From the NCBI GenBank assembly GCA_976551045.1, contig CDPCPM010000169.1, forward strand, positions 2,542,001 to 2,606,000: a DNA stretch of 64,000 nt. The letters are read 5' to 3'. The stretch comes from Glaucostegus cemiculus (taxonomy: Eukaryota). The notes under the pieces were generated by a model that saw nothing but the letters and a program-made list of their open reading frames with translations, was not told the origin of the DNA and did not search any database. Below, piece after piece: positions 7,768 to 51,503 of this stretch. Every line of letters starts with the position of its first letter. The first letter of the stretch is position 1. The position numbers and the translations under genes are program-made.

Positions 7768-8565
7768 AATTTGGAATTGGAATTGAAATTGGTTTATTAT
7801 TGTCACATGTACCAAGGTACAGTGAAAAATGTGTCTTGCATACCGCTCATACAGATCAATTCATTAAACAGTGCATTGAGGTAGTACAAGGTAAAACAAT
7901 ACAGAATGCAGAGTAAAGTATAACAGCTACAGAGAAAGTGCAGTGCAGGTAGACAATAAGATGCAAGGTCATAACGAGGTAGCTTGTGAGGTGAAGGGTC
8001 CATCTTGTACTTGGAAACGGTTCAAAGTCATATAACAGTGGGGTAGAAGCTGTCCTTGAGCCTGGTGGTACGTGCTTTCAGGCTTTTGTATCTTCTGCCT
8101 GATGGGAGAGGGGAGAAGAGAGAATGTTCCAGATGGGTGGGGTCTTTGATTATGCTGGCTACTTCATCGAGGCAGCGAGAAGTATAGACAGAGTCCAAGG
8201 AGGGGAGACTTGTTTCCATGATGTGCTGAGTTGTCTCCACGACTCTATGCAGTTTCTTGCAGTCCTGAGCAGAGCAGTTGCCATACCAAGCCATGATGCA
8301 TCCAGATAGGAGGCTTTCTATGGTGCATTGATAAAAGTTGGTGAGTGTCAAGAAGGACATGTCAAATTTCTTTAGCCTCCTGAGGAAGTAGAGGTGCTGG
8401 TGAGTTTTTTTGGCTGTGGTATCTATGTGTAGACCAGAATAGGCTATTGGTGATGTTCATTCCTTGGAATTTGAAACTCTCAACCCTCTCGACCTCAGCA
8501 CCATTGACGTAAACAGGTGTATGAACATCGTGCCCCCTCCCACCTTCCTGAAGTCAATGACTGGT
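7768..8565 (-). mobile_element. Rex1/Babar-clade LINE 3' fragment (RT C-terminus, DUF1891-like, plus 3'UTR)
   Basis: LTNFYQCTIESLLSGCIMAWYGNCSAQDCKKLHRVV...LFSPLPSGRRYKSLKARTTRLKDSFYP; minus-strand tail GGTACATGTGACAATAATAAACCAATT followed by CCAATT-like repeats. Confidence 0.9.
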
Positions 8566-24834: not shown

Positions 24835-24950
24835 CTTGCACATATGATGTTATGCTTATATGATGCTATATGCCTGTGATGCTGCTGCAAGTTTTTCATT
24901 GCACCCATGCATACATGTACTTGTGCATGTGACAATAAACTTGACTTTTA
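24835..24950 (+). mobile_element. Rex1/Babar-type 3' tail fragment
   Basis: TGTGATGCTGCTGCAAGTTTTTCATTGCAC...CATGTGACAATAAACTTGACTT. Confidence 0.7.
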
Positions 24951-48810: not shown

Positions 48811-50134
48811 ACAATTCCAGCATGTTCTTATACTTTTTGTCCATCTTTTCTTTTATTTCTTTCTCTCTCTCCCCTTTCTCTCTAGCTATCCCCTTTATCA
48901 ATTTAGTAGATAGCACAAAAGCACTGTGTCACCTGGACAACCTTGGTTAATGAAGACAGACAAAAAACATTTCTGCCATTTCCTTATTTCCCAATATAGA
49001 TCTTCAACAGCCTGTTCTAGTCTAACCACATAGATGCCATGACCAAGAAAGCTCACCGCACCTCTACTTTCTCAGGAGGCTAAAGAAATTTGACATGCCC
49101 CCTTTGACCCTTACCAATTTTTATCGATGCACCATAGATAGCATCCTATCTGGATGCATCATGCCTTGGTATGGCAAATGCTCTGCCTAGGACCAAAAGA
49201 AACTGCGGAGTTATGGACACAGCTAGGAAATCGCAGAAACCAGCCTCCCCCTCCATGAACTGTGTCTACATTTCTCATTGCCAACATAGAACAACCATAG
49301 ATCCATAGAACAATACAGCACAAAACAGGCCCTTTGACCCACCAAGTTGTGCCATCCTTCAAACATCTCACAATCTAACTCTTTCTTCCCACATATCCTA
49401 CTATTCCACATTCTTCCATGTGCCTATCTAACAATCTCTTGAACCTGTCCAACGTATCTGCCTCTACTACCACCCCAGGCAGCACATTCCATGCACCAAC
49501 CACTCTCTGGGTGAAAAACTTCCCTCTGACATCTCCCCTAAACTTTCCACCCAATATCTTAAAGCCATGCCCTCTCGTCTTGTGCATCTGTGCCCTGGGA
49601 AAGAGGCGCTGGCTGTCAACTCTATCTATTCCTCTCAATATCTTATACACCTCTATCAAGTCCCCTCTCATCCTCCTCTCCAACGAGTAAAGCCCTAGCA
49701 CCTTAAGCCTCTCCTCATATTCCATACCCTCTAATTCAGGCATCATCCTGGTAAATCACCTCTGTACCCTCTCCAACGCCTCCACATCCTTCCTATAATG
49801 TGGCGACCAGAACTGAACACAATACTCTAAGTGCGGCCTAACTAGAGTTTTGTAAAGCAGCATCATCACCTCTCTGCTCTTGAACTCAATCCCACGATTT
49901 ATAAAAGCTAACATCCCATAAGCCTTCTTAACTGCCCTATCCACCTGCGAGGCAACTTTGAGTGAGCTGTGGATATGAACCCCCAGATCCCTCTGCTCCT
50001 CTACACTGCCAAGTACCTTACCATTTACCTCATACTCTGCCCTGGAGTTCACCCTACCAAAGTGAACCACCTCACACTTCTCCGGATTAAACTCCATCTG
50101 CCTCCTGTCCGTCCAGCTCTGCATCCTATCAATA

Positions 50135-50883
50135 TCCAAGATGGCGGTGCACACAGTTGCAGCAGCCTCTCCTGGGTCTGTAGTGCTTTGTGTTTTTTGT
50201 TAGTCTTTTAGTGTTTTTGTGCTGGTTTTTTTTTGTGTGTTCTTTGTTCCTGATGTTTGTTCTTAATGTTTGTGTGCTTGGTGTTCGTTTTATGGAGTCG
50301 TTGTCTGTGCTGACGGCACCGACAGCTCGTCGGAGCTCATCGGAGGCGACAGCGTGTTGAAGGCCCTGGATCCTCGTGGTGGTGTCGGGATGCGGGCGGT
50401 GAGGGGGCTGCCCGGGCTGGAGGTGGTCGGCCTGTGGAGCTGGAGGTCATCGGACTGCGGAGCTGGAGGCGAAGGAGCCGGAGGTCGTCGGACTGCGGGG
50501 CCGGAGGTGAAGGAGCCGGAGGTCGTTGGACTGCGGGGCCGGAGGTGGTCGGCCTGTGGGGCCGGAGGTCGTCGGACTGTGGGGCTGGAGGTGGTCATCG
50601 GATCGGACTGCGGGGCCGGAGGTTGTTGTTGGACTGTGGGCCCGGAGGCTGTAGGACTGCGGGGGCTGGAGGTGGTCATTGGTGCGGGGTGAAGCTGGGG
50701 GCTGGGAGATGTAATGTTGAGGTTCTGGGAGACGTGTTGTACCAGCAGACCAAAGTCCATGCGGCTCCAATGTTTTGATGTTTTTGTCCTGTTGTCTTTT
50801 ATTGTCTTTAATGTCTTTTGCACATTGGCCTGTGGAGTACGATATCTCGCCTTCATGTATACGTGAAAGTGACAATAAACTTG
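50135..50883 (+). mobile_element. Non-autonomous composite retroelement: YY1-motif 5' end, T-rich segment, GC-rich VNTR, Rex/Babar-type 3' tail
   Basis: Starts CAAGATGGCGG (50137); ends GTGACAATAAACTTG (50869-50883), identical to 24929-24943; CpG-rich; TCAATA on both flanks (50129-50134 and 50884-50889). Confidence 0.7.
50414..50690 (+). repeat. GC-rich VNTR, ~12 units of 23 bp (GGRGCYGGAGGTCGTCGGACTGY) mixed with 15-bp units (GGRGCYGGAGGYGAA)
   Basis: Units read directly from the sequence; they explain the overlapping low-complexity ORFs at 50270-51073. Confidence 0.92.
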
Positions 50884-51503
50884 TCAATAAAGTGAGGCAA
50901 GACATTCCCTTCACAAAGCCATGCTGACTGTCCCTAATCGGTCCGTGACTCTCCAGGTGTTCATAGATCCTATCCCTCAGAATCCTTTCTGAGGGATAAC
51001 ATAACCAAAGACCCCACCCAACCTGGACATTCTCTCTTCTCCCTTCTCCCATTGGGCAAAAGCCTGAAAGCACATACCACCAGATTCAAGGAGAGCTTCT
51101 ATCCTGCTGTTATAAGACTATTGAATGATCCCCTAGTATCATAAGATGGACTCTTGACTCAAAATCTACCTCATTATGGTCTTGCACCTTATTGTCTACC
51201 TGCACAGCACTTTCTCTGTAACTGTAACATGTTCTACATGCTGTTATTGTTTTCCCTTATAATACTTCAATGCACTGTTGGAATGAAATTATCTGTATGG
51301 ATGGCATGCAAAACAAAGCTTTTTACTGTACCTCAGTACATGTGACAGTAATAAGCCAATTCACTTTGATTCAGTCTAAACTTTTGCAACCTTTTCCTTT
51401 CTGTATTAGCTATAGATGCCATGAAAATCTGTTTTTATGTTTCTTGACTACTTTATATTCCATTTTCTCTTCCTTTATCAATTTTTGGTCCTCTGTTACT
51501 CAG

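Follow-up and report, generated by a model that had tools for sequence, protein, structure and literature searches.

A stretch of 64,000 nt from the genome of Glaucostegus cemiculus, referred to here as the window, carries a short CpG-rich unit beginning at position 50,135. A sequence-only reading had taken this unit for a composite retroelement of the SVA type, in which a 5′ end bearing a YY1 motif, a GC-rich VNTR and a LINE-like tail had been brought together from independent sources. The question raised by the locus is whether its modules were indeed assembled as a patchwork, or whether they descend from a single LINE that is still present in the same genome. We put the probability at roughly 85% that the unit belongs to a high-copy non-coding family that keeps both ends of a co-resident LINE, likely of the Rex1/Babar clade, and that is likely copied in trans by the enzyme of that LINE.

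Anatomy of the copy in the window

The organization of the window copy and of the repeat that surrounds it is as follows, with the basis of each assignment in brackets.

50135..50881, plus strand: full-length copy of the short element, subfamily D, without the hexamer tail (genome matches; ends set by 29 other loci)
50137..50146, plus strand: YY1-type motif at the extreme 5′ end, with, on the minus strand, a GCCAT core and TT, also found in the LINE head (sequence)
50138..50396, plus strand: head, homologous to the 5′ region of the partner LINE, comprising the 5′ UTR and likely the first ORF codons (alignment)
50419..50690, plus strand: G-rich VNTR with units chiefly of 23 and 15 nt, each starting with GGAGG (unit inventory)
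50691..50768, plus strand: unique spacer, a remnant of the middle of the older subfamily (aligns to the older subfamily)
50769..50881, plus strand: tail, homologous to the 3′ UTR of the partner LINE, with a predicted hairpin followed by GTGACAATAAACT at the end (alignment, folding)
50882..50891, plus strand: 10-nt filler resembling the last bases of the element, standing where the (GATTCT)n tail would be (empty-site comparison)
49285..50985, minus strand, bounds approximate: host repeat, a LINE fragment that we take to be CR1-like, split by the element (RT C-terminal frame at 49756-50199)

Much of the description first given from the letters alone holds. The YY1 motif at the 5′ end, AAGATGGCG at 50138, occurs once in the window when both strands are considered; the T-rich linker and the second T-rich segment are present; and the twelve or so VNTR units amount to twelve GGAGG-started units counted from 50419 (six of 23 nt and two of 15 nt, then single units of 31, 26 and 24 nt and a degenerate last one). 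The contrast in composition is equally clear, with a CpG observed/expected ratio of 0.83 in the element (GC 0.57, 44 CpG) against 0.18 in the rest of the window. The reported lack of A/B boxes and of reverse transcriptase (RT) is likewise borne out, as the element contains no tRNA gene, no Rfam match at E ≤ 1 and no match to A/B-box patterns, and RT is absent from it in the 16 stop-to-stop frames read by eye across the stretch. The boundaries, originally given as 50135 to 50883, are right at the start (TCCAAG) and need correction at the end, where the family terminates at 50881 with GTGACAATAAACT. A 15-nt match to a tail at 24929-24943, which had been read as part of the element, comprises 13 nt of the element and 2 nt of junction filler, because the window copy has lost its (GATTCT)n tail.

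A high-copy family in the source genome

A search of the source genome (2.85 Gb) returned 4,136 candidates, of which 40 were scored: the window copy and 39 further loci with 88-95% identity to it, almost all of these matches being colinear between query positions 10 and 757. Each of the 29 other loci retrieved terminates in GTGACAATAAACT, or in a version of it with one letter changed, followed by (GATTCT)n, and most of them start at TCCAAGATGGCGG. Exact-pattern counts gave 1,699 matches for a 27-mer from the 3′ end and 270 for a 26-mer from the 5′ end, with none for the controls. When loci were anchored on the head, 30/30 extended to the 3′ end characteristic of the family, about 540-1,350 nt away, which confirms the expectation of a multi-copy, colinear family sharing both ends; when they were anchored on the tail, 30/30 were family members and 17/30 had no match to the first 270 nt, some duplicates being included in either sample. 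Reverse transcription that begins at the 3′ end of an RNA yields copies with intact 3′ ends and missing 5′ parts, and the 5′ truncation observed here beside intact 3′ ends is explained in this way. Full-length copies measure 537-1,343 bp in subfamily D (median 709 bp; 24 pattern-sampled copies) and 890-1,183 bp in subfamily E (median 1,001 bp; n=17), and the predicted variation in VNTR length is thus found already within D.

It could be argued that such copies are independently decayed LINE insertions or segmental duplicates rather than members of a family that moves by itself, and some loci do share their flanks and are segmental duplicates. This explanation is very improbable, since 73 full-length copies have distinct left flanks together with the same internal junctions and sharp ends, since 5′ truncation stands beside intact 3′ ends, and since subfamily-specific features recur at thousands of places. 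Amplification of the family in its own right is reflected in the 1,699 exact matches to the 3′ end and a further 2,002 to a junction specific to subfamily E; the coding region of the LINE is absent from the element, and the description of a non-autonomous family stands. Separately, one segmentally duplicated block was noted in which single insertions and their flanks are repeated at 95-100% identity across many contigs (loci L161-L190, L265-L278, L280 and L283-L286, on contigs C1, C121, C129, C130, C175, C310, C314, C316, C417 and others).

Both ends derive from one LINE

The head at 50138-50396 aligns to positions 8-227 of a LINE with 163 of 263 columns identical (z=15.8; score 117 against 30±5.5 for shuffled sequences), and the head of an old copy, L191, does so with z=25.9. 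The tail aligns over 50769-50879 to the end of the same LINE with 82/130 identical columns (z=11.5), and the (GATTCT)n tail repeat is common to the short element and this partner LINE. The VNTR, by comparison, shows no similarity to the LINE beyond chance (z=0.9). A blastn comparison of the 3.5-kb LINE with the window gave a match only at the head of the element (E=7.6e-13), and neither blastn nor the reading frames revealed any LINE coding region within the window element. Because both ends are homologous to the ends of one LINE, the short element can be classified as a SIDE, or bipartite non-autonomous LINE, and on sequence grounds it has every SIDE feature for which it was tested. The proposal that the modules are of independent origin, as in an SVA-type patchwork, is not supported, the head being derived from the 5′ region of the partner. 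A match to an ordinary LINE 5′ region, which would make the unit a simple deletion derivative, had been named as grounds for rejecting the composite; the head is LINE-derived, as this condition supposed, but a simple deletion is not what is observed, the middle being without LINE homology and the VNTR being confined to part of the lineage.

The same result bears on the possibility of a Pol III SINE, in which a degenerate small-RNA head would be joined to a LINE tail. Size and the LINE-like tail would suit such an element, but the tRNA, Rfam and A/B-box searches are all negative, the head is LINE 5′ sequence, and the element contains long internal T runs, which are expected to terminate Pol III; a SINE is therefore hardly credible. 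The anatomy points instead to transcription by Pol II and to mobilization in trans by the partner LINE, as we infer from the retained ends.

In a tree of heads, the short elements cluster together at a distance of about 0.38 substitutions per site from present LINE heads, and the split between short element and LINE is for this reason considered old. No closer parent was encountered in the 30 loci examined, so that the parent would be either an ancestor of the present LINE or a family outside the sample.

The partner LINE

A looser tail pattern has 29,376 exact matches in the genome. The first 20 of these loci to be fetched comprised 15 LINE 3′ UTRs of one family, three sister short elements and two short tails. 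A tail of the (GATTCT)n type ends 17/20 loci with a long PF09004 ORF and 7/30 of the top PF09004 loci, PF09004 being a domain that we take to be linked to Rex1/Babar. The full-length partner is about 3.5 kb long, with a head-to-tail distance of 3.45-3.49 kb in 5/14 fetched candidates, which represent two independent insertions, the others being duplicates. Five of 30 head-pattern loci continue into the LINE ORF; the first search for the LINE 5′ end gave chiefly duplicates of one truncated copy, with the head in 9/30 loci. The partner frame (L230:347-3130) encodes an RT (E=3e-17) and an endonuclease whose match is weak (E=0.002-0.008) and below the curated cut-off.

The clade of the partner can be approached from several sides. 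The 120 listed homologues of the partner protein include many PF09004 RT proteins from teleosts and a few from rays, and none of the 120 bears the name Rex1. The peptide FSSAFNT, encoded by the Rex1 primer RTX1-F1, occurs in the partner LINE; at the nucleotide level, the forward primer mismatches L228 at 7/21 positions, and three other copies match it better at another site; no site for the published reverse primer was found in the partner copies. Rex1/Babar LINEs have been described as encoding an endonuclease and an RT and as ending in a conserved 3′ UTR followed by tandem repeats of 5-7 nt (PMC4635592, PMC6274825). The partner LINE fits this description with its RT, its weakly matched endonuclease and its 6-nt tail repeat, although it may differ from the primer-defined lineage, the reverse site not having been found. 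Its structure and 6-nt tail make Rex1/Babar its likely clade, and the earlier statement that the element shares its 3′ end with a Rex1/Babar LINE holds in the sense that it shares that end with a (GATTCT)n LINE likely of this type. As a separate observation, the RT region of the partner shares 55-78% identity with many teleost proteins and 53-56% with three ray proteins, for proteins of at most 509 aa; this greater similarity to teleosts than to rays may reflect horizontal transfer.

The tail at 24929, which the sequence-only reading had assigned to the mobilizing LINE, belongs to a different and older family with GACTTT-type repeats. This LINE was rejected as the partner: its tail repeats are other ones, no short headed element was seen in 30 of its 4,789 exact-match loci, and its copies in that sample are 65-90% identical in pairs where the flanks differ. 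Two further sequences were noted in passing, a second PF09004 LINE family (L091-L116) with tails of the GACAATAAAGTAACTTGAACTTGA type and, on the minus strand of the window at 8031-8538, a fragment of a Rex-type RT C-terminus with 44-55% identity to the partner protein.

Insertion sites and junctions

The window copy lies in a host repeat whose flanks are 89-92% identical to other copies of that repeat and from which about 400 bp are missing (a gap of 396-404 bp in three host matches). With filler in place of the hexamer tail and with this loss of host sequence, the window copy is atypical. The region around it (about 49000-51355) shows a triple nesting, the 3′ part of an older Rex-type LINE (pieces at 49044-49160 and 50995-51159) containing the minus-strand CR1-like fragment, which in turn contains the element.

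Copies had been expected to carry target duplications of their own, as L1-type insertions do; duplications of at least 8 nt were found in none of 67 copies (0/50 D and 0/17 E). Shorter duplications of 6-7 nt occur in 5/50 D copies, against 1.5% in mismatched pairs. Empty sites, available for 10/73 copies among the fetched loci, show either duplication or microhomology of 0-7 nt at the junctions, with tail letters often involved, or losses of up to 14 nt. Target duplications are 15 bp for L1 and 5 bp for ZfL2-1 (PMC4245944), and the family junctions are nearer to those of ZfL2-1. One copy of the LINE is inserted bluntly within a family copy (L157), so that LINE and family were active at overlapping times or the LINE outlasted the family.

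A further peculiarity concerns the 5′ junction. A homopolymer of 7-59 T precedes the head in 11/17 E copies against 1/50 D copies (the E copies with a variable homopolymer being among L127, L196 and L199-L220), and it is absent from the three empty sites examined. Runs of A, not T, are carried by the heads of full-length LINEs and by old copies, the LINE heads noted being L198, L201, L211, L214 and L219. Slippage, either at initiation or during completion of the cDNA, is a candidate origin for the variable oligo(T). One locus, L020, has a tandem duplication of the initial ~21 nt of its head at the 5′ junction.

Subfamilies and the probable growth of the VNTR

The family falls into subfamilies that differ in their middle. 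Old copies without a VNTR have a unique middle (L280-L282, L288); in others (L123, L292, L293) a block is duplicated once or there are four units of 37 nt. Subfamily D, to which the window copy belongs, has units of 23 and 15 nt, and subfamily E, which made up 19/30 loci of one sample, has gained units of 35 and 36 nt (35, 36 and 22 nt in the unit inventory); E copies also carry, after a truncated old tail, about 150-180 nt with 80-88% identity to LINE 3′ UTRs. Mean pairwise divergence at the 3′ end is 9.1% in old copies (n=12), 2.6% in D (n=24) and 1.5% in E (n=17), the D and E samples having been chosen by exact patterns, which biases them toward young copies. This suggests an order from the old, VNTR-less subfamily to D and then to E; in the tree, 12/27 branches are unresolved, which leaves the order among old subfamilies open. 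In intermediate subfamilies (L033, L038, L055, L059, L197), the predicted 3′ hairpin has a (TG)n microsatellite as part of its loop; D has lost this microsatellite and kept the stem.

The middle of the oldest copies, about 300 nt, has no LINE match at the DNA or protein level and may therefore be captured foreign sequence; among the 294 fetched loci, it matched family members only. Its interpretation as a coding remnant was rejected (nine frames, p=0.10-0.36), as were the descent of the repeat unit from the head of the LINE (five comparisons, p=0.04-0.13, not significant; best match 15/16 nt, p=0.13) and a special folding of the VNTR, whose energy equals that of base shuffles.

A true SVA-like composite, in which a LINE promoter and tail would have been joined to a captured foreign seed of GC-rich VNTR that is now the functional core, draws on this LINE-unlike middle and its restriction to the family among the fetched loci, on the real chimaerism of subfamily E, where a LINE 3′ UTR stands behind the truncated old tail, and on the longest arrays being found in the least diverged subfamily (median 1,001 against 709 bp). 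Against it, both ends derive from one LINE lineage, copies without any VNTR have transposed too, and length is unrelated to divergence within the subfamilies (rho 0.07 and -0.02); moreover, a LINE-unlike central region is also found in the SIDE Persaeus, according to the portion of its description that is available (PMC6740152). We regard a composite of this kind as unlikely and retain the derivation of the family from the two ends of one LINE.

CpG content and age

The thresholds usually applied to CpG islands are a GC content of 0.55, an observed/expected ratio of 0.65 and a length of 500 bp; judged by sequence only, 47/50 D copies and 17/17 E copies pass them. Outside the VNTR, transitions at CpG exceed those at other C and G positions by a factor of 9.8 in 51 D copies, 6.1 in the 24 D copies sampled by pattern, 4.1 in subfamily E and 4.3 in the LINE, and the window copy departs from the majority sequence at 2/413 non-CpG and 5/46 CpG positions. 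Decay of CpG at 4-10 times the rate of other sites implies that the copies are young and probably methylated in the germline, and not protected islands, so that their CpG richness would reflect youth combined with germline methylation. The description of the family as young is supported; the accompanying idea that it moves functional mini CpG islands around the genome is opposed by the same decay.

A probable mechanism of mobilization

In the mechanism that we favour, and in which we place high confidence on the basis of the anatomy, the head would serve as a Pol II promoter lying inside the element and opening with a YY1-type site, and the LINE protein would take up the RNA through the 3′ hairpin and the hexamer tail. 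Human L1 offers a parallel, since a YY1-type site with the core motif lies at the start of its internal promoter (PMC11602158); the head described here would similarly be transcribed by Pol II and bound by YY1. The LINE protein would bind the predicted hairpin and the (GATTCT)n tail of the short-element RNA, nick DNA and reverse-transcribe from the 3′ end, and such copying would frequently produce 5′ truncation as well as junctions at which duplication or microhomology amounts to 0-7 nt. Folded singly, most LINE, D and older tails are predicted to form the terminal hairpin, and its stem shows a compensating change from C-G to U-A between old and D copies; in the two E tails folded, the best fold is not that hairpin, and the fold predicted for the consensus is a weak one (-2.8).

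At its origin the lineage probably lacked a VNTR. GGAGG-started blocks would then have been duplicated repeatedly in place, probably by slippage or template switching, giving rise to unit lengths that differ among subfamilies, and one subfamily would later have acquired a fresh LINE 3′ end of about 180 nt behind the old one.

Relation to known elements and significance

The closest parallel among described elements is Persaeus, a lepidopteran SIDE whose partner is the CR1 element Zenon. It likewise keeps both ends of its partner LINE around a LINE-unlike centre and is also high-copy and active alongside its partner (PMC6740152). Persaeus differs in being an insect, CR1-derived element that ends in poly(A) and is about 270-350 bp long, and the word 'tandem' is absent from the available main text (PMC6740152); the short element, by contrast, measures 0.5-1.3 kb and has a VNTR, a hexamer tail and a likely Rex1/Babar partner. 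RTESINE, WALLSI3, RIME and the R2 SIDE likewise keep the extreme 5′ and 3′ LINE ends, and the bipartite elements of the RTE, Ingi, Vingi and R2 clades are ORF-less and presumed to be transcribed by Pol II, with tail exchange described and, in the portion of the text available, no VNTR core (PMC5786205). In that portion, bipartite non-autonomous LINEs are called rare, only these four clades are given as their sources by 2018, and the word Rex is absent (PMC5786205). The account of Persaeus adds CR1 as a source of SIDE and names R2/R1 hybrid SIDEs (PMC6740152). No Rex1-derived SIDE is described in the available parts of PMC6274825 and PMC3381678, and neither such a SIDE nor this family was found among the papers that the literature searches listed; an unnamed entry for the family in a repeat library is quite possible.

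The resemblance to SVA is partial. As far as the available text describes them, SVA, LAVA, PVA and FVA are also non-coding and LINE-dependent, with a central GC-rich VNTR of variable length and subfamilies that gain modules, and subfamily E recalls SVA in its 35/36-nt units and its variable 5′ simple repeat (PMC5753468). The central GC-rich VNTR of variable length is thus a feature that the family has in common with SVA/LAVA. There is no indication of the component parts of SVA (Alu, HERVK10, CCCTCT) in the family, whose ends are LINE-derived and which has no Rfam match and no 5′ hexamer, and the L1 signature of poly(A) and a target duplication of about 15 bp is absent as well, the family having (GATTCT)n and no duplication of 8 nt or more in 67 copies. 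The earlier claim of a convergent SVA-like system can therefore be kept for the variable VNTR and the gain of modules and must be given up for the parts, the tail and the target duplications; there is no sign of homology between the two, and the likeness is at most convergence. A bolder reading, which we consider doubtful, is that SVA-type evolution has been replayed stepwise in one vertebrate genome, a Rex1/Babar SIDE growing a VNTR that raises its transcription or mobilization, refreshing its LINE tail and renewing its 5′ homopolymer. The tail refresh would then be a means of keeping up with the partner LINE, and the homopolymer, renewed at each cycle, would buffer against 5′ erosion. If this were true, VNTR-centred composites would be a general outcome of LINE parasitism and not a hominoid oddity.

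For a SIDE derived from the two ends of one LINE, the reading that we prefer, the significance is more immediate. A family of at least 3,700 copies descended from a likely Rex1/Babar LINE extends the list of clades known to give rise to bipartite elements, and the ends that it retains map the probable cis requirements of such a LINE to about 260 nt at the 5′ side and about 80-110 nt at the 3′ side. The coexistence of subfamilies without an array, with a short array and with a long array provides natural variants for the study of VNTR function outside apes, and the young, GC-rich insertions of variable length may serve as polymorphic markers.
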